Program-made: the position numbers and the translations under genes
Virus record (IMG/VR): IMGVR_UViG_2609459801_000011
DNA length: 6,166 bases
DNA from: a virus
Lineage: Duplodnaviria > Heunggongvirae > Uroviricota > Caudoviricetes
Strand: one strand, 5' to 3'
Shown: positions 1 through 6,166 of the stretch, piece by piece
Position numbering within the stretch: position 1 is the stretch's first letter
Layout: each line of letters starts with the position of its first letter
The notes under the pieces: generated by a model
What the model was told of the DNA's origin: nothing
The model's input: the letters and a program-made list of their open reading frames with translations, nothing else
Databases searched by the model: none

Positions 1-72
1 CATTTCCGCGCAGACGATGACGTCACTGCCCGGCTGTATGCGCGAGGTTACCGACTGCGGCCTGAGTTTTTT
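1..72 (-). CDS. insB: IS1 InsB (InsAB' transposase) N-terminal portion, partial; continues past the window start
   Basis: The reverse complement of 1-47 translates in the -1 frame relative to insA to ...[11 protein letters not shown], matching the start of the InsB frame. The A6C frameshift motif lies at 66-72. The 5' limit is approximate. Confidence 0.65.
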
Positions 73-323
73 AAGTGACGTAAAATCGTGTTGAGGCCAA
101 CGCCCATAATGCGGGCAGTTGCCCGGCATCCAACGCCATTCATGGCCATATCAATGATTTTCTGATGCGTACCGGGTTGAGAAGCGGTGTAAGTGAACTG
201 TAGCTGCCATGTTTTACGGCAGTGAGAGCAGAGATAGCGCTGATGTCCGGCAGTACTTTTACCGTTACGCACCACGCCTTCAGTAGCTGAACAGGAGGGA
301 CAGCTGATAGAAACAGAAGCCAC
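48..323 (-). CDS. insA: IS1 InsA, transposition inhibitor / DNA-binding protein (91 aa, GTG start)
   Basis: Full-length ORF in the six-frame track; the translation is near-identical to InsA as I recall it, including the Cys-rich zinc-finger-like N-terminus CPSC...CSHC and the C-terminal LKNSGRSR. Confidence 0.9.
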
Positions 324-378
324 TGGAGCACCTCAAAAACACCATCATACACTAAATCAGTAAGTTGGCACCATTACC

Positions 379-846
379 CTAGTGAACTTGCAAAACTGGA
401 AAAGCTAAAGAATCAGTATTCAAAGGAAGAATATAATAATCTTATCGCTCAAATAAATGAGCGTTATAAAGATCCAAAGCAACCAAAGGCGAAAGGTTAT
501 TCTGATGATGCAGCCCAACGAATGATTGATCATCTGAATCAACAGAATGCGTTACTAAGTTCACAAGCTGAGTTGACCGTTAAATTAAGTTCCTCTGAAC
601 AGGAACTGGTTAAGTGGCGTCAGCGGATTGCCGACCTAGAGTCACGACCATCATCGAAATTAACCCAGGATCAGAAATCGCTTCTCTTACACCGGGAAGA
701 AATAACCGCGTTGATGGAGAAAAATGTTGCGATTGAAAAGAATAACAGGCTAATCAAGGAATCCGCCGAAATAACAGCATGGCGTGATTCATTGCAGGCT
801 TCGATTGATAATCGTCAGCAGGGGTATGATATTCAGATTGCTGGTT
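379..846 (+). pseudogene. Internal fragment of a tail tape measure protein (lambda H-like), truncated at its 5' end by IS1 and joined at its 3' end to an I-gene remnant in another frame
   Basis: The reading frame is open from the first base after IS1 (379) to the stop at 941 (six-frame ORF 522-941 is its Met-started portion). The translation is coiled-coil-like (..SQAELTVKLSSSEQELVKWRQRIADLESR..LTQDQKSLLLHREEITALMEKN..) and resembles the central heptad region of lambda H (LQAELRTLEK...LSAQEKSLLAHKDETLEYKRQ) as recalled from memory. There is no start codon or RBS at the 5' end. Confidence 0.45.
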
Positions 847-1107
847 ATCCTGTTTTCTCTCGGTGCCAGTATGGTGCTCGGTGGTGTGGCGCAGATGCTG
901 GCACCGAAAGCCAGGACGCCCACGGCAGCAAGTACAGATAACGGCAAACAGAACACCTATTTTTCTTCACTGGATAATATGGTTGCCCAGGGCAATGTCC
1001 TGCCCGTTCTGTACGGTGAAATGCGTGTGGGGTCGCGCGTGGTTTCTCAGGAGATCAGCACGGCAGACGAAGGGGACGGTGGTCAGGTTGTGGTGATTGG
1101 TCGCTGA
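847..1107 (+). pseudogene. Tail assembly protein I, C-terminal remnant (about 85 codons, lacks the N-terminal two thirds)
   Basis: Frame-1 translation ILFSLGASMVLGGVAQMLAPKARTP...TDNGKQNTYFSSLDNMVAQGNVLPVLYGEMRVGSRVVSQEISTADEGDGGQVVVIGR* matches the C-terminus of lambda gpI. The upstream sequence is unrelated and in a different frame. The Mets at 784 and 826 are probably fortuitous. Confidence 0.75.
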
Positions 1108-1125
1108 TGCAAAATGTTTTATGTG

Positions 1126-1153
1126 AAACCGCCTCAGGGCGGTTTTGTCGTTT
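1126..1153 (+). terminator. Stem-loop between the I remnant and the J start (possible weak intrinsic terminator or RNA stability element)
   Basis: Perfect 8-bp inverted repeat AAACCGCC (1126-1133) / GGCGGTTT (1138-1145) with a 4-nt loop TCAG, followed by the T-rich but interrupted TGTCGTTT. Confidence 0.35.
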
Positions 1154-1167
1154 ATGGAGCGTGAGGA

Positions 1168-2979
1168 ATGGGTAAAGGCAGCAGTAAGGGGCATACCCCG
1201 CGCGAAGCGAAGGACAACCTGAAGTCCACGCAGCTGCTGAGTGTGATCGATGCCATCAGCGAAGGGCCGGTTGAAGGTCCGGTGGATGGATTAAAAAGCG
1301 TGCTGCTGAACAGTACACCGGTGCTGGACACTGAGGGGAATACCAACATCTCCGGTGTCACGGTGGTGTTCCGTGCCGGTGAGCAGGAGCAGACACCGCC
1401 GGAGGGGTTTGAATCCTCCGGCTCCGAGACGGTGCTGGGTACGGAAGTGAAATATGACACGCCGATCACCCGCACCATTACGTCTGCAAACATCGACCGT
1501 CTGCGCTTTACCTTCGGTGTACAGGCACTGGTGGAAACCACCTCAAAGGGTGACAGGAATCCGTCGGAAGTCCGTCTGCTGGTTCAGATACAACGTAACG
1601 GTGGCTGGGTGACGGAAAAAGACATCACCATTAAGGGCAAAACCACCTCGCAGTATCTGGCCTCGGTGGTGGTGGGTAACCTGCCGCCGCGCCCGTTCAA
1701 TATCCGGATGCGCAGGATGACGCCGGACAGCACCACAGACCAGCTGCAGAACAAAACGCTCTGGTCGTCATACACCGAAATCATCGATGTGAAACAGTGC
1801 TACCCGAACACGGCACTGGTCGGCGTGCAGGTGGATTCGGAGCAGTTCGGCAGCCAGCAGGTGAGCCGTAATTATCATCTGCGCGGGCGCATTCTGCAGG
1901 TGCCGTCGAACTATAACCCGCAGACGCGGCAATACAGCGGTATCTGGGACGGAACGTTTAAGCCAGCATACAGCAACAACATGGCCTGGTGTCTGTGGGA
2001 TATGCTGACCCATCCGCGCTACGGCATGGGGAAACGTCTTGGTGCGGCGGATGTGGACAAATGGGCGCTGTATGTCATCGGCCAGCATTGCGATCAGTCG
2101 GTGCCGGACGGTTTTGGCGGCACGGAGCCGCGCATCACCTGTAATGCGTACCTGACCACACAGCGCAAGGCGTGGGATGTGCTCAGTGATTTCTGCTCTG
2201 CGATGCGCTGTATGCCGGTATGGAACGGGCAGACGCTGACGTTCGTGCAGGACCGACCGTCGGATAAGGTGTGGACCTATAACCGCAGTAATGTGGTGAT
2301 GCCGGATGATGGTGCGCCGTTCCGCTACAGCTTCAGCGCCCTGAAGGACCGCCATAATGCCGTTGAGGTGAACTGGATTGACCCGAATAACGGCTGGGAG
2401 ACGGCGACAGAGCTTGTGGAGGACACGCAGGCCATTGCCCGTTACGGTCGTAACGTCACGAAGATGGATGCTTTTGGCTGTACCAGCCGGGGGCAGGCAC
2501 ACCGCGCCGGGCTGTGGCTGATTAAAACAGAACTGCTGGAAACGCAGACCGTGGACTTCAGCGTGGGTGCCGAAGGGCTTCGCCATGTACCGGGCGATGT
2601 CATTGAAATCTGCGATGATGACTATGCCGGTACCCGCTGGCATGAAGATTCCGTGCGTAACCGCTGGTTCAGCGTAATGGCGGGGCCGTCTGTGCGCGTG
2701 AATGAATGGTTCAGCGCGTATGCGATGGCGGGTGTGGCTTACAGCCGTGTGTCGACTTTCTCCGGGGATTATCTCCGCGTAATTGACAACAAGGGGAAAA
2801 CGCACGACGTGCTGACCGGAAGTGATGACGGTCGCCACAGCAACACGTCTCTGGCGTGGGGAGCTGGCGTGCAGTTTAACCCGACCGAATCCGTGGCCAT
2901 TGATATTGCTTATGAAGGCTCCGGCAGTGGTGACTGGCGCACTGACGGTTTCATCGTGGGTGTCGGTTATAAATTCTGA
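1168..2979 (+). CDS. Chimeric ORF: tail tip / host specificity protein J N-terminal ~488 aa fused in frame to the C-terminal ~115 aa of a Lom/Ail-family outer-membrane beta-barrel protein; probably a deletion-derived pseudogene
   Basis: AGGA 7-10 nt upstream of the ATG at 1168. The N-terminus MGKGSSKGHTPREAKDNLKSTQLLSVIDAISEGP... matches lambda J through ...EICDDDYAG (codon ending about 2631). From 2632 the translation switches to Lom-like sequence ending ...VAIDIAYEGSGSGDWRTDGFIVGVGYKF*, the characteristic Lom C-terminus. Lambda J is about 1130 aa, so roughly 640 J codons and the lom 5' half are missing. Confidence 0.85.
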   Translation: MGKGSSKGHTPREAKDNLKSTQLLSVIDAISEGPVEGPVDGLKSVLLNSTPVLDTEGNTNISGVTVVFRAGEQEQTPPEGFESSGSETVLGTEVKYDTPITRTITSANIDRLRFTFGVQALVETTSKGDRNPSEVRLLVQIQRNGGWVTEKDITIKGKTTSQYLASVVVGNLPPRPFNIRMRRMTPDSTTDQLQNKTLWSSYTEIIDVKQCYPNTALVGVQVDSEQFGSQQVSRNYHLRGRILQVPSNYNPQTRQYSGIWDGTFKPAYSNNMAWCLWDMLTHPRYGMGKRLGAADVDKWALYVIGQHCDQSVPDGFGGTEPRITCNAYLTTQRKAWDVLSDFCSAMRCMPVWNGQTLTFVQDRPSDKVWTYNRSNVVMPDDGAPFRYSFSALKDRHNAVEVNWIDPNNGWETATELVEDTQAIARYGRNVTKMDAFGCTSRGQAHRAGLWLIKTELLETQTVDFSVGAEGLRHVPGDVIEICDDDYAGTRWHEDSVRNRWFSVMAGPSVRVNEWFSAYAMAGVAYSRVSTFSGDYLRVIDNKGKTHDVLTGSDDGRHSNTSLAWGAGVQFNPTESVAIDIAYEGSGSGDWRTDGFIVGVGYKF

Positions 2980-3005
2980 TTAGCCAGGTAACACAGTGTT
3001 ATGAC

Positions 3006-3032
3006 AGCCCGCCGGTTCAGGCGGGCTTTTTT
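3006..3032 (+). terminator. Rho-independent terminator downstream of the J-lom chimera
   Basis: GC-rich 8-bp stem AGCCCGCC (3006-3013) / GGCGGGCT (3020-3027), 6-nt loop GGTTCA, then a run of six T (3027-3032). Confidence 0.7.
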
Positions 3033-3043
3033 GTGGGGTGAAT

Positions 3044-5923
3044 ATGGCAGTAAAGATTTCAGGTGTACTGAAAGACGGCACAGGAAAACCGGTACAGAAC
3101 TGCACAATCCAGCTGAAAGCAAAACGTAACAGCACCACGGTGGTGGTGAACACGCTGGCCTCAGAAAATCCGGATGAAGCCGGGCGTTACAGCATGGACG
3201 TTGAGTACGGTCAGTACAGCGTTATTCTGTTGGTGGAAGGATTCCCGCCGTCACATGCCGGGACCATCACCGTGTATGAAGATTCTCAACCCGGTACGCT
3301 GAATGATTTTCTCGGTGCCATGACGGAGGATGATGCCCGTCCGGAGGCACTGCGTCGTTTTGAACTGATGGTGGAAGAGGTGGCGCGTAACGCGTCCGTG
3401 GTGGCACAGAACACGGCAGCCGCAAAGAAGTCAGCCAGTGATGCCAGCACATCTGCCAGTGAGGCGGCAACCCGTGCGACTGATGCTGCAGATTCAGCAC
3501 GTGCAGCCAGCACGTCAGCCGGACAGGCCGCGTCGTCGGCTCAGTCAGCGACTTCCAGCGCAGGAACGGCATTAACAAAGGCCACTGAAGCATCAAAAAG
3601 TGCTGCCGCTGCAGAGTCCTCAAAAAGCGCGGCAGCTACCAGTGCCAGTGCCGCGAAAACGTCAGAAACGAATGCTGCAGCGTCACAACAATCAGCAGCC
3701 ACTTCTGCATCCACCGCGACTACGAAAGCGTCAGAAGCTGCCACCTCAGCCCGGGATGCGGCGGCTTCAAAAGAGGCGGCAAAATCATCAGAAACGAACG
3801 CATCCTCGAGCGCCAGTAGCGCAGCTTCCTCGGCAACAGCGGCAGGAAATTCCGCGAAGGCGGCAAAAACGTCCGAGACGAACGCTAAGTCTTCTGAAAC
3901 AGCAGCGGGACAGAGCGCCTCAGCTGCGGCAGGTTCAAAAACAGCGGCTGCGTCGTCTGCCAGTGCTGCGTCAACAAGTGCCGGGCAGGCCTCAGCCAGT
4001 GCCACCGCTGCCGGAAAATCGGCAGAAAGCGCCGCATCATCCGCTTCAACAGCCACAACGAAGGCTGGCGAAGCCACTGAGCAAGCCACTGCAGCAGCGA
4101 GGTCTGCTTCTGCAGCAAAAACCTCTGAAACAAATGCAAAGACTTCAGCAGACAATGCTGCTTCCTCTAAGGCGGCAGCCGCATCGTCCGCTGGTTCAGC
4201 GGCGTCATCGGCATCATCTGCGTCTGCTTCAAAAGATGAGGCGACCAGACAAGCGTCAGCAGCGAAAGGTAGTGCCACGACAGCAACAACGAAAGCATCA
4301 GAGGCGGCAGGCAGTGCGACGGCTGCATCTCAGAGCAAAGTTGCTGCTGAATCCGCGGCAACGCGTGCCGAAACAGCGGCAAAACGGGCAGAGGATATTG
4401 CTGATGCCGTATCTCTGGAAGATGCGAGTACGACGAAAAAAGGTGTGGTTCAGCTCAGTAGCGCCACTAACAGCCCGTCTGAAACGCTGGCTGCGACACC
4501 AAAAGCGGTTAAGGCGGTAATGGATGAAACGAACAAGAAAGCGCCCTTAAATAGTCCTGCACTGACCGGAACGCCAACAACGCCAACTGCGCCAAAAGGT
4601 ACTAATAATACTCAGATCGCAAGTACGGCTTATGTGATGGCCGCGATTGCCGCCCTTGTAGACTCGTCGCCTGACGCACTGAATACGCTGAACGAGTTAG
4701 CGGCGGCGCTGGGCAACGACCCGAATTTTGCGACCACCATGACTAACGCGCTTGCGGGTAAGCAACCGAAAGATGCCACCCTGACGGCGCTGGCCGGGCT
4801 TGCTACTGCGGCAGACAGGTTTCCGTATTTTACGGGGAATGATGTCGCCAGCCTGGCAACCCTGACAAAAGTCGGGCGGGATATTCTTGCGAAATCGACC
4901 GTTGCTGCCGTTATCGAATACCTCGGTTTACAGGAAACGGTAAACAGGGCCAGGAACGCCGTGCAAAAGAATGGCGATACCTTGTCCGGTGGGCTTACTT
5001 TTGAAAACGACTCAATCCTTGCCTGGATTAGAAATACTGACTGGGCAAAGATTGGTTTTAAAAATAATGCCGACAGCGACACTGATTCATACATGTGGTT
5101 TGAAACAGGCGACAACGGCAATGAATATTTCAAATGGAGAAGCCGCCAGAGCACCACAACAAAAGACCTGATGACTCTTAAATGGGATGCTTTGTCTGTC
5201 CTTGTTAAAGCCCTTTTCAGCAGTGAAGTAAAAATATCGACAGTCAATGCACTGAGGATATTTAATTCATCTTTTGGTGCTATTTTTCGTCGTTCTGAAG
5301 AATGCCTGCATATCATCCCTACACGAGAGAATGAGGGAGAAAATGGTGATATAGGGCCACTACGCCCCTTTACGCTTAATCTCAGAACTGGTCGGATAAG
5401 CATGGGGCATGGTCTTGATGTTACAGGGGATATATTTGCAAACCGTTTTGCAATTAACAGTAGTACCGGCATGTGGATTCATATGCGTGACCAGAATGTT
5501 ATTTTGGGACGCAATGCGGTATCCACCGATGGTGCGCAGGCATTACTTCGTCAGGACCACGCTGATCGCAAATTTATGATTGGTGGACTGGGGAATAAGC
5601 AATTTGGCATCTACATGATTAATAACTCAAGGACAGCCAATGGCACCGATGGTCAGGCGTACATGGACAACAATGGCAACTGGCTTTGCGGTGCGCAAGT
5701 TATTCCCGGCAATTATGGTAATTTTGACTCACGTTATGTGAGAGATGTCCGACTTGGTACACGTGTTGTTCAGACTATGCAAAAAGGCGTGATGTATGAG
5801 AAATCAGGTCATGCAATTACGGGGCTTGGCATTATCGGTGCAGTTGATGGCGATGATCCGGCAGTATTCAGACCAATACAAAAATACATCAATGGCACAT
5901 GGTATAACGTCGTACAGGTGTAA
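3044..5923 (+). CDS. stf: Side tail fibre protein Stf, apparently intact (959 aa from ATG 3044): lambda-like N-terminus, Ala/Ser/Thr-rich repeat shaft, different C-terminal receptor-binding-type domain
   Basis: MAVKISGVLKDGTGKPVQNCTIQLKAKRNSTTVVVN... matches the lambda Stf N-terminus as recalled. One uninterrupted ORF ends at TAA 5921-5923. The C-terminal part carries the GDTLSGGLTF motif common in tail fibre distal domains. GGGGTG lies upstream of the ATG. The six-frame track starts the ORF at GTG 3038, but ATG 3044 gives the conserved N-terminus. Confidence 0.9.
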   Translation: MAVKISGVLKDGTGKPVQNCTIQLKAKRNSTTVVVNTLASENPDEAGRYSMDVEYGQYSVILLVEGFPPSHAGTITVYEDSQPGTLNDFLGAMTEDDARPEALRRFELMVEEVARNASVVAQNTAAAKKSASDASTSASEAATRATDAADSARAASTSAGQAASSAQSATSSAGTALTKATEASKSAAAAESSKSAAATSASAAKTSETNAAASQQSAATSASTATTKASEAATSARDAAASKEAAKSSETNASSSASSAASSATAAGNSAKAAKTSETNAKSSETAAGQSASAAAGSKTAAASSASAASTSAGQASASATAAGKSAESAASSASTATTKAGEATEQATAAARSASAAKTSETNAKTSADNAASSKAAAASSAGSAASSASSASASKDEATRQASAAKGSATTATTKASEAAGSATAASQSKVAAESAATRAETAAKRAEDIADAVSLEDASTTKKGVVQLSSATNSPSETLAATPKAVKAVMDETNKKAPLNSPALTGTPTTPTAPKGTNNTQIASTAYVMAAIAALVDSSPDALNTLNELAAALGNDPNFATTMTNALAGKQPKDATLTALAGLATAADRFPYFTGNDVASLATLTKVGRDILAKSTVAAVIEYLGLQETVNRARNAVQKNGDTLSGGLTFENDSILAWIRNTDWAKIGFKNNADSDTDSYMWFETGDNGNEYFKWRSRQSTTTKDLMTLKWDALSVLVKALFSSEVKISTVNALRIFNSSFGAIFRRSEECLHIIPTRENEGENGDIGPLRPFTLNLRTGRISMGHGLDVTGDIFANRFAINSSTGMWIHMRDQNVILGRNAVSTDGAQALLRQDHADRKFMIGGLGNKQFGIYMINNSRTANGTDGQAYMDNNGNWLCGAQVIPGNYGNFDSRYVRDVRLGTRVVQTMQKGVMYEKSGHAITGLGIIGAVDGDDPAVFRPIQKYINGTWYNVVQV
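3400..4400. repeat. Intragenic imperfect repeats encoding the Ala/Ser/Thr-rich shaft of Stf
   Basis: Recurrent peptide motifs with matching nucleotide repeats: AAKTSETNA-like units at about 3649, 3775, 3860 and 4112; TATTKASEAA at about 3721 and 4270; AASTSAGQA at about 3505 and 3960. Codons are dominated by GCN/TCN/ACN. Confidence 0.7.
4911..4936. other. Candidate 26-bp DNA-invertase crossover site (gix/cix/hix-like) inside stf at the constant/variable junction
   Basis: TTATCGAATACCTCGGTTTACAGGAA differs at about 2 of 26 positions from the phage Mu gix site as I recall it (TTATCCAAAACCTCGGTTTACAGGAA) and keeps the conserved ACC-TC-GGTTT centre. It encodes ..VIEYLGLQE.., the point where similarity to lambda Stf ends. 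Confidence 0.55.
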
Positions 5924-5926
5924 TTT

Positions 5927-6166
5927 ATGCAGCATTTAAAAAATATTAAGTCTGGAAATCCAAAAACAAAAGAACAATATCAGCTAACAAAGAATTTTGA
6001 TGTTATCTGGTTATGGTCCGAAGACGGAAAAAACTGGTATGAGGAAGTGAAAAACTTTCAGCCAGACACAATAAAGATTGTTTACGATGCAAATAATATT
6101 ATTGTCGCCATCACCAAAGATGCCTCCACGCTTAACCCTGAAGGTTATAGCGTCGTTGAGGTTCCA
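5927..6166 (+). CDS. tfa: Tail fibre assembly protein Tfa, N-terminal 80 codons (partial, continues beyond the window end)
   Basis: ATG at 5927 lies 3 nt after the stf stop, with AGGTG 6-11 nt upstream. The frame is open to the window end ([41 protein letters not shown]...). Position directly after stf and resemblance to TfaR/TfaQ/TfaE-type proteins, from memory. Confidence 0.8.

Follow-up and report, generated by a model that had tools for sequence, protein, structure and literature searches.

The window, i.e., the whole 6,166-nucleotide (nt) stretch of DNA that was analyzed, carries on its plus strand an intact open reading frame (ORF) at positions 3044 to 5923, the side tail fiber gene stf, which codes for a 959-residue protein. 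Translation from an alternative GTG codon at 3038 would lengthen it to 961 residues. Pfam searches identified a phage_tail_N domain (PF08400) at residues 3 to 136 (E = 8e-72) and a Gp34_trimer domain (PF21446) at residues 669 to 779. Downstream on the same strand, positions 5927 to 6166 hold the first 80 codons of tfa, coding for a tail fiber assembly chaperone of the Mu U type and cut by the end of the contig. Upstream of stf, the window contains a J'-'lom junction, an exact 44-mer of which had no match in genome contigs; in relatives, J and lom are intact at this place. At least five further E. coli contigs encode the identical 959-residue Stf, preceded by J and lom. The N-domain is that of lambda-type Stf proteins, which are likewise encoded behind J and lom in lambdoid tail operons. 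The prophage in the contig of the window lacks most tail genes owing to an IS1 and two deletions. As it cannot build a tail, its intact stf probably represents a stored module, not a working fiber.

Long ORFs that overlap stf or run antisense to it (3541 to 4278, minus strand; 3600 to 4520, plus strand; 4630 to 5472, minus strand) were rejected as composition artifacts because they lie inside the continuous stf frame, whose exact product recurs on the E. coli contigs mentioned above. In automatic annotations the gene appears as "prophage tail fiber N-terminal domain-containing protein" or is split into spurious genes.

The proximal block of stf (3044 to 4436, plus strand) is of the Rac/lambda type and codes for the tail-attachment N-domain (residues 1 to 136) and an Ala/Ser-rich shaft (residues 137 to 465). 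Its nucleotide identity to stfR of the K-12 Rac prophage is 100 to 80% as far as about position 4443, the first 200 nt being 100% identical. Identity to lambda ranges from 77 to 94%, except between 3953 and 4256, a stretch missing in lambda, and many lambdoid phages are 90 to 93% identical up to 4515. Comparison of the window with lambda by blastn yielded matches at 2852 to 3952 (87%) and 4257 to 4926 (76%) and no similarity past 4926; with megablast, similarity ended at 4923. A previous interpretation made from the DNA alone, hereafter called the sequence-only reading, had stated that the N-terminal 620 or so residues follow lambda Stf and that the last 330 or so do not resemble its C terminus. 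The latter statement agrees with the points at which both alignments stop. The former is correct as to collinearity but overlooks the 304 additional nt of Ala/Ser-rich shaft (3953 to 4256) and a much closer relationship to Rac StfR, with which residues 1 to 499 share 93% amino acid identity. Tandem repeats were rejected as the origin of the added shaft length, as Tandem Repeats Finder (TRF) gave only two trivial repeats of 12 to 13 nt; the shaft is of low complexity and degenerate, with no clean repeat array.

The rest of the constant portion, its C-terminal 160 or so residues, is encoded between 4437 and 4923 (plus strand), as delimited by identity profiles and blastn block boundaries. This constant-part tail is common to lambda Stf (72 to 83% nt identity) and to H of phage P88 (86 to 100% nt identity). 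The same profiles and boundaries place a graft zone, where Rac-type sequence gives way to P88-type sequence, in its first 100 or so nt (4437 to 4541, plus strand).

From 4925 to 5923 (plus strand), stf codes for a variable distal part, Sv (residues 628 to 959), of the type of Mu S in the G(+) state, P1 S in the C(+) state, and P88 H. The distal 328 residues share 70.6% amino acid identity with residues 167 to 501 of Mu S, and PDB entry 5YVQ ("Tail fiber protein S") was matched with an E value of 2.9e-145 (query residues 1 to 326 against residues 175 to 502 of the chain). At the nucleotide level, the distal part is 92% identical to that of the P2-like phage P88, the first 100 nt after 4924 are 99% identical to Mu, and at least 80% of Sv is covered in 46 phage records. 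No similarity was found between Sv and the T4 gp37-like distal part of lambda Stf, and at the protein level lambda orf314 aligned with Stf residues 566 to 631 only, with no similarity beyond its own residue 66. Over its 80 available residues, Tfa shows 100% identity with P88 Tfa and with the 175-residue Caudo_TAP protein of L004, an E. coli relative; identity to U is 96% for P1 and 91% for Mu, and lambda Tfa is unrelated. In relatives, where the gene is complete, its product matches PF02413. Full-length homology to the 5YVQ domain and a cognate Caudo_TAP chaperone gene directly downstream are features of Mu S-type fibers; a T4 gp37-like distal domain with a chaperone of the lambda Tfa/gp38 type is not what we found here. 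The horizontal exchange of a receptor-binding module, as put forward in the sequence-only reading, is well supported by the matches to Mu S, 5YVQ, and P88 and by the lack of any lambda-like distal sequence. From its homology to Mu S, P1 S, and P88 H, Sv is the predicted receptor-binding region.

We picture the fiber as made of four parts: the PF08400 N-domain, expected from the example of lambda Stf to anchor it to a siphovirus tail, the long Ala/Ser-rich shaft, the conserved constant tail, and the Mu S-type distal domain, whose folding and trimerization would be aided by the Mu U-type Tfa encoded downstream.

Analysis of the boundary between the constant and variable parts revealed a 26-bp site of the gix/cix type, i.e., a crossover site for a Din-family serine invertase, at 4911 to 4936 (plus strand). 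This site, TTATCGAATACC-TC-GGTTTACAGGAA, is composed of two imperfect 12-bp inverted half-sites around a 2-bp core (4923 to 4924), lies inside the fiber ORF, and sits in an inverted repeat of about 42 bp (4907 to 4948). It is identical to Mu gix at 24 of 26 bases, and matches were obtained in 0 of 200 shuffles; the same pattern finds both annotated boundaries of the Mu G segment with 0 mismatches and also matches cixL and cixR of P1. At nucleotide 4924, similarity to Mu S rises abruptly from about 50% to 99%, and lambda keeps the left half-site TTCTTGAATACCTTGG and diverges thereafter. The start of the distal module thus coincides exactly with an invertase crossover site, and the presumed older break, separating lambda-type from Mu-type distal parts, falls on the crossover dinucleotide. 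The start at 4937 proposed earlier was nearly right, being 13 nt off the true breakpoint at 4923/4924; the gix-type site that causes this boundary had been missed. Both P88 and E. coli relatives have an inverted copy of 4907 to 4948 at a distance of 3.05 kb downstream, the TC core and the inner half-sites being identical between both sites. These features indicate that the boundary is a site-specific recombination site and that the module represents one arm of an invertible switch, more than a fossil joint.

As the window comprises the whole of contig JNRZ01000112.1 and ends at 6166 within tfa, the partner site, the alternative gene set, and the invertase were deduced from relatives. Between 2628 and 6166, L004 and the window are 99.9% identical, and the inverted partner site is found about 3.05 kb downstream in relatives of that identity (L004, L003, and L005) and in P88. 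L004 contains gixL at 11868 to 11893 (plus strand) and gixR at 14946 to 14921 (minus strand), with tfa (plus strand), tfa' and Sv' (both minus strand), and a Resolvase fragment. Relatives thus carry two oppositely oriented fiber ends, each with its own Tfa and fused in frame; the window holds the first arm alone. An inverted junction modeled in silico was in frame, giving a 945-residue protein that ends in INGTWYNAGSI, like Mu S'. This junction exists in nature at 100% identity over 1,600 nt, and the 945-residue gene of the inverted form is annotated in L015, L016, and L017. L004 and L015 differ by a clean inversion of 11864 to 14950 bounded by the sites, and L016 and L017 are likewise inverted. 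Among complete E. coli genomes, at 99 to 100% identity, the orientation of the window occurs in 20 and the inverse in 42. These comparisons indicate that the segment inverts, as seen at the population level. A Din-family serine invertase would recombine both sites and so swap Sv-U for the oppositely oriented Sv'-U', yielding the in-frame 945-residue fiber with a tip of the Mu S' type.

In every relative examined, the invertase gene of the cassette is a truncated remnant of about 99 codons with internal stops. A functional serine invertase adjacent to the cassette was thus not found among these relatives, an intact pinR lying nearby in L017 only, about 220 bp downstream. Intact Din invertases are common in E. 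coli prophages, e.g., pinE and pinR of K-12. The invertase remnant is identical over 301 of 301 nt in L004, L005, and L006 (plus orientation) and in L016 (minus orientation). With one and the same dead gene present in both orientations, an invertase acting in trans must have catalyzed one flip or more. As the cassette invertase is a pseudogene, many strains may now have the switch locked in one state.

This state of the invertase in all relatives checked invites the view that the module arrived through an invertible cassette whose switch is dead, leaving the site at 4911 to 4936 as a scar and the gene as a fixed mosaic. The contig also crosses the gix site without an assembly break, arguing that one orientation prevailed in the culture that was sequenced. 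However, the occurrence of both orientations among genomes with an identical pseudogene implies that flipping went on after the cassette invertase had died, the core and inner half-sites are the same in both sites, and intact Din invertases are at hand in some strains. We therefore regard a dead switch as unlikely, with a real chance of being right. A bolder extension of the invertible-switch reading, which we propose only tentatively, is that the segment is an orphan cassette with its own invertase dead, still flipped in trans by PinR, PinE, or P2-like Cin/Gin homologues, even in tail-less prophages. If so, the chromosome would hold the receptor-binding modules as a two-state library, open to capture by superinfecting lambdoid phages through recombination in the conserved constant tail, 4437 to 4923.

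The flanks of the cassette suggest how it was acquired. Relative to stfR, the left flank is about 92% identical up to position 5518 of L009, and similarity resumes on the right at the 3' end of tfaR, from which the right flank in L017 runs on at 98.8% through pinR and ynaE. In relatives, identity to P88 extends through U', Sv', gixR, and the first 190 or so nt of the invertase gene. We infer that a 3.8-kb P88-like cassette comprising the constant tail, gix, Sv, U, U', Sv', gix, and that first part of the invertase gene replaced distal stfR and most of tfaR in a Rac-type prophage. The newest graft between lambdoid and Mu/P2-type sequences lies at 4437 to 4541, some 400 to 490 nt upstream of the distal boundary, and this left joint of the cassette was probably made by homologous recombination in a conserved fiber motif. 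The region from 4937 to 5923, in turn, is the variable Sv of an invertible host-range cassette like those of Mu (G), P1 (C), and P2-like phages, set in frame on a Rac/lambda-type fiber.

The position of the newest joint raises the question of whether homologous recombination at conserved fiber motifs made the whole mosaic, the coincidence with gix being incidental. The joint falls in the motif ...KGVVQLSSATNSPSETLAATPKAVK..., away from gix; patches within Sv (5224 to 5423 and 5737 to 5836) are devoid of a known site; and recombination between lambda and Rac stf by relaxed homologous recombination has been reported (PMC3945230). Against this, the two independent comparisons, i.e., the end of lambda similarity and the start of Mu similarity, break within 3 nt of the crossover dinucleotide, and the 3.05-kb inversions are clean and bounded by both sites. 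Both homologous and site-specific processes clearly contributed, so that the purely homologous explanation holds for the newest joint alone and is improbable for the gene as a whole.

The nucleotide composition changes along the gene, the GC content being 0.566 at 3044 to 4936, 0.446 at 4937 to 5923, and 0.362 at the start of tfa. The maximum-likelihood change point is at 4995 (2-lnL interval, 4879 to 5028), with a log-likelihood ratio (LLR) of 31.4 compared with a maximum of 8.5 in 200 shuffles. The profile is thus not flat, and the drop in GC after about 4940, staying low through tfa, had been correctly noted before. The fall is largely a codon-position-2 effect of the composition of the Ala/Ser-rich shaft (38% Ala, 23% Ser), whose GC2 is 0.79 versus 0.42 in the distal part. 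At the third position, shaft and distal part are alike (GC3 of 0.419 and 0.422), and only the 486 nt just upstream (GC3 of 0.556) deviate at synonymous positions (P = 0.007). The GC content of Sv plus U is 44 to 46% in Mu, P1, P88, and the window alike. Because much of the drop stems from amino acid composition, GC is weak evidence of exchange, and we rejected GC and codon usage as sufficient proof of foreign origin. In the sequence-only reading, the foreign nature of the module was correctly recognized; the invertase site and the upstream graft at 4437 to 4541 were absent from it, and the weight given to GC is to be reduced. That no exchange took place at all, amino acid composition and faster evolution of the receptor end of a vertically inherited lambda-type stf sufficing, fits the codon-position-2 origin of most of the GC drop and the equal GC3 values but is almost certainly wrong in view of the distal matches to P88 (a myovirus), Mu S, and 5YVQ, the absence of any recognizable resemblance to the distal end of lambda Stf, and a Tfa of the Mu U type unrelated to that of lambda.

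Altogether, we favor the explanation that stf carries an invertible tip of the Mu/P1/P2 type on a Rac/lambda fiber, acquired as a P88-like cassette graft and probably binding the lipopolysaccharide (LPS) core, with a probability of about 0.88 for the reading as a whole. It places three nested exchange boundaries, namely, a homologous joint at 4437 to 4541, an invertase core at 4923/4924, and a tip patch at 5737 to 5836, and indicates that a lambda/Rac-type fiber can bear a complete flip-flop specificity cassette of the Mu/P2 type, which is of use for prophage fiber annotation, host-range prediction, and fiber engineering. The mosaic is of an ordinary, long-described type and leaves present understanding unchanged. 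Reports of mosaic fiber genes, of exchange linked to invertases, and of Din invertases that act in trans date back to the 1980s to 1990s. Exchange of stf among unrelated phages, probably driven by invertases, is well documented (PMC3945230), and a lambdoid phage carrying opposed fiber genes plus an invertase has been reported (PMC12315714).

Several known systems resemble this locus in part. The fiber shares with Stf of lambda (Ur-lambda) the PF08400 N-domain, the place after J and lom, 72 to 94% nt identity in a collinear arrangement up to the crossover core, and the left half-site, but lambda lacks the 304 nt of shaft, and its distal part and Tfa are T4 gp37-like and gp38-like, respectively. 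The K-12 Rac locus stfR-tfaR-pinR has the same gene order (J, lom, stf, tfa) and an N-terminal part much closer than that of lambda, but the 1,120-residue StfR has a lambda/T4 gp37-type end (...NIAFNYIVRLA), TfaR is of the lambda type, and there is no invertible segment; the portion kept by StfR/TfaR is replaced here by the Mu/P88-type cassette. The Mu G segment is alike in its crossover site and the place of this site in the fiber ORF, in Sv and the U-type Tfa, and, in relatives, in a segment of about 3.05 kb bounded by inverted repeats with an alternative arm ending like Mu S'. It differs in that the constant part here consists of 625 residues of a lambda/Rac-type siphovirus side fiber versus 170 residues in the myovirus Mu, identity to Mu S falls to only about 50% in the middle and at the tip of Sv, and the cassette invertase of the relatives is a pseudogene. 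H/Tfa of P88 (P2-like, Xuanwuvirus) is 86 to 100% identical at the nucleotide level from 4437 to the contig end, with an identical gixL, but the 420 or so N-terminal residues of H (baseplate attachment) are unrelated, the tip patch is 70% identical, and the invertase is intact. In the P region of e14 (stfP/tfaP, tfaE/stfE, pinE) and other fiber invertons of E. coli prophages, a Din invertase likewise swaps the fiber C terminus; e14 differs in its site, pix (CTCTCGAAAACCTTGGTTTGGGAGAA), in its Sv modules, and in having an intact pinE. Phase variation in these systems has been measured in cultures (PMC4272514); e14 is a defective lambdoid prophage.

By analogy with the Mu G(+) and P1 C(+) fibers, the expressed tip likely binds the outer LPS core rather than OmpC. 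The host ranges of Mu G(+) and G(-) differ, the Mu-type receptor being the LPS core (PMC4406740), and OmpC has been suggested as the receptor of Ur-lambda Stf (PMC11990801). Judging from the homologues, the receptor would differ from the one used by lambda Stf. The SfMu fiber, more than 95% identical to Mu S', uses the O antigen and not the LPS core (PMC4406740). Receptor specificity is uncertain given the sequence divergence within Sv: its middle (residues 735 to 829) is only 48 to 49% identical to Mu S and P1 S, and the last 50 residues (910 to 959) share 72% identity with both P88 H and P1 S and 51% with Mu S. Within the segment coding for these last residues, the nucleotide identity profile delineates a divergent patch near the fiber tip (5737 to 5836, plus strand), 70% identical to P88 versus 88 to 100% on either side, where a sub-module has been exchanged in comparison with P88, P1, and Mu.

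The intact side-tail-fibre gene stf (3044-5923) encodes a 959-aa protein and is followed at 5927-6166 by the beginning of tfa, 80 codons long. The sequence-only reading had described the last third of stf as an AT-richer distal domain joined to a lambda-like fibre by horizontal exchange. Divergence from lambda was confirmed at both nucleotide and protein levels. blastn against lambda yielded matches at 2852-3952 (87%) and 4257-4926 (76%) and none beyond, the megablast match stopped at 4923, and the alignment of lambda orf314 with the Stf protein was confined to residues 566-631. The lambda-like description of the proximal part held for its collinearity but not for an extra Ala/Ser-rich shaft of 304 nt (3953-4256, ~101 codons), which has no counterpart in lambda stf; the proximal part moreover resembles K-12 Rac StfR far more closely, sharing 93% of amino acids across residues 1-499 and all of the first 200 nt. 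Fibre length therefore differs among relatives, and TRF revealed no clean tandem array in the extra shaft.

Homology identified the source type of the distal module. Stf residues 624-956 share 70.6% identity with Mu S 167-501, and the solved structure of Mu tail fibre protein S (5YVQ, also 9KI1) was matched at E 2.9e-145 over 326 residues. From 4437 to the contig end, nucleotide identity to the P2-like phage P88 is 86-100%. The start of tfa shows identities of 100% (P88 Tfa), 96% (P1 U) and 91% (Mu U), but is unrelated to lambda Tfa. Horizontal exchange of a fibre module is thus borne out, the distal part being of Mu S/P88 type and Tfa of Mu U type. Conservation along the module is uneven: identity to Mu S and P1 S is 83-96% for residues 625-734 and 830-909, ~48% for residues 735-829, and 51% (Mu) to 72% (P1, P88) for the last 50 residues. 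Near the tip, identity to P88 falls to 70% over 100 nt (5737-5836) and is 88-100% on either side; this suggests a distinct, highly localized exchange or diversification at a place where contact with the receptor or Tfa is likely.

The initial observation was therefore correct and its interpretation supported, but incomplete. The boundary set at 4937 lies near the break, but the site itself had been missed: 4937 is the base directly after a Din-family invertase crossover site spanning 4911-4936, TTATCGAATACC-TC-GGTTTACAGGAA, with the core dinucleotide at 4923-4924. This sequence has 2/26 mismatches to a pattern present with 0 mismatches at both annotated boundaries of the Mu G segment; the pattern also recurs at P1 cixL and cixR with additional mismatches, and it was matched in 0/200 shuffled windows. 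Similarity to Mu climbs from ~50% to 99% at 4924. Lambda stf keeps the left half-site TTCTTGAATACCTTGG (4558-4573 of the lambda sequence used) and a cix-like TT core before diverging, at the very point where the T4 gp37-like distal part of the gene starts. Three independent sequence comparisons, i.e., the end of lambda similarity, the rise of Mu similarity and the lambda half-site, break at the crossover core.

The fall in GC noted after about 4940, continuing into tfa, is real: GC is 0.566 in 3044-4936, 0.446 in 4937-5923 and 0.362 in tfa, with the best single change point at 4995 (2-lnL support interval 4879-5028; LLR 31.4 versus at most 8.5 in shuffles). Its use as a sign of exchange was less secure. 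In-frame analysis gave the Ala/Ser shaft a GC2 of 0.79 (38% Ala, 23% Ser) and a GC3 of 0.419, the same as that of the distal part (0.422); GC3 is elevated only in the 486 nt directly upstream of the boundary (0.556, p = 0.007). Composition by itself is thus no proof of foreign origin, which comes from the homology data. The variable end plus U (Sv+U) has a GC of 44-46% in Mu, P1, P88 and the window alike, indicating that low GC moves with the module.

The exact 959-aa Stf is encoded in several Escherichia coli genomes, within an intact tail operon. One relative, L004, is 99.9% identical to window 2628-6166 and carries, 3′ of tfa, an opposed tfa′, an opposed fibre C-terminus (Sv′), an inverted gix site (14946-14921) and a serine invertase remnant. 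Modelling the inverted junction, by joining the constant part up to the core to the reverse complement of the segment's far end (1600 nt), gave an in-frame 945-aa fibre with a Mu S′-type end. Complete genomes were found to contain this very sequence (100% identity), the inverse orientation occurring in 42 genomes versus 20 for that of the window (at least 80% coverage). Comparison of L004 with strain YJ6 shows a clean inversion whose limits are precisely the two sites, and L016 and strain 2017.02.04CC are also inverted, each with an annotated 945-aa fibre. The contig runs through the site unbroken, so the sequenced culture was mostly in one orientation.

The cassette's invertase remnant contains internal stops, and both orientations share one pseudogene (loci considered: L004 15001-15288; L016 9119-9419; 2017.02.04CC 9535-10125); the outward flank with the remnant and the host junction is present in 94 genomes. 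Over 301/301 nt the remnant is identical between L004, L005 and L006, in the window orientation, and the inverted L016. The parsimonious reading is that flipping went on after the death of the cassette's own invertase, catalysed in trans. The invertases Gin, Cin, Pin and Hin cross-complement. Strain 2017.02.04CC retains an intact Rac pinR ~220 bp downstream, a candidate trans-acting enzyme; in YJ6, IS2 additionally splits the remnant.

In L004 the P88-like block is 3.8 kb long, starting at the counterpart of window position 4437 and ending ~190 nt into the invertase gene. Its left neighbour is ~92% identical to Rac stfR and its right neighbour is the final ~80 nt of tfaR; in 2017.02.04CC, identity on this side extends through Rac pinR and ynaE at 98.8%. 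Rac-type flanks on both sides indicate that, in a Rac-type prophage, a whole Mu/P2-type cassette took the place of distal stfR and most of tfaR. Judged by sequence, its left joint is in a conserved fibre motif (4437-4541). In strain 2018-02-2CC, the left prophage flank (1-3200) holds the Rac-type genes trkG and a ynaK-like ParB gene, and the prophage is followed (19340-23062) by a diguanylate cyclase gene, ybhB and bioA, the attB-lambda neighbourhood. As 2017.02.04CC has pinR-ydfK-ynaM instead, the right end of the prophage varies between strains.

PMC3945230, citing Haggard-Ljungquist 1992 and Sandmeier, describes fibre-module exchange between lambda, Mu, P1, P2 and T-even phages as well documented and probably invertase driven. 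Like this locus, the lambdoid element e14 (PMC4272514) and the lambdoid phage LLS (PMC12315714) have invertible fibre ends. The locus is a further case of an invertible lambdoid fibre, its Rac-type fibre carrying a P88/Mu-type cassette; mechanistically it is nothing new and its novelty is low. We found no earlier description of this exact combination.

By homology, the PF08400 N-domain would attach the trimeric fibre to a lambdoid tail, the Ala/Ser-rich shaft and constant tail would give reach, and the Mu-S-type distal domain would bear receptor specificity and fold with assistance from the U-type Tfa. Mu uses the outer LPS core (PMC4406740), which by analogy may be the receptor here too. This assignment is uncertain because near-tip residues have diverged and because the near-identical S′ fibre of SfMu uses O-antigen (PMC4406740). 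OmpC has been suggested as the receptor of Ur-lambda Stf (PMC11990801).

The window is the whole draft contig JNRZ01000112.1 (assembly GCA_000704965.1), in which IS1 and two deletions remove most tail genes, so that the intact stf cannot serve its own virion. An infecting lambdoid phage could rescue the gene by recombination, a process demonstrated between lambda and Rac stf (PMC3945230). The IS1 end (insA, 48-323, minus strand; IS1 part 1-378) truncates the lambdoid tape-measure gene, a fragment of which lies within the 1-1107 region upstream of the 3′ end of gene I, all that is left of that gene. One deletion, which compared with L004 spans ~2.3 kb (7257 to 9585), occurred across a 10-bp microhomology (junction 2628-2637) and created an in-frame J′-′lom fusion ORF (1168-2979, 603 aa), in which J breaks off at residue ~489 and continues into the last 119 residues of Lom (Pfam Ail_Lom 485-603). 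A second assembly, GCA_000700485.1, encodes this fusion protein too. The other deletion, of ~2.96 kb, joins the middle of the tape-measure gene to the 3′ end of gene I within 379-1107 (window 379-848 = L004 2032-2501; window 846-2637 = L004 5466-7257; 3 bp common at the joint); it takes out M, L, K and most of I, leaving the prophage unable to build a tail.

The contig end at 6166 falls mid-tfa, in a stretch 100% identical to P88, and is probably where the assembly broke at a repeat (another copy of a U-type cassette or prophage in the genome) rather than a biological end. The assembly's gene calls cut stf into spurious genes (3541-4155, minus; 4155-4520 and 4961-5923, plus), the long ORFs in other frames or on the opposite strand within 3541-4520 arising because the shaft is Ala/Ser-rich and GCN-rich. 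PGAP likewise divided the near-identical gene of 2018-02-2CC into a pseudogene and a "phage tail protein."
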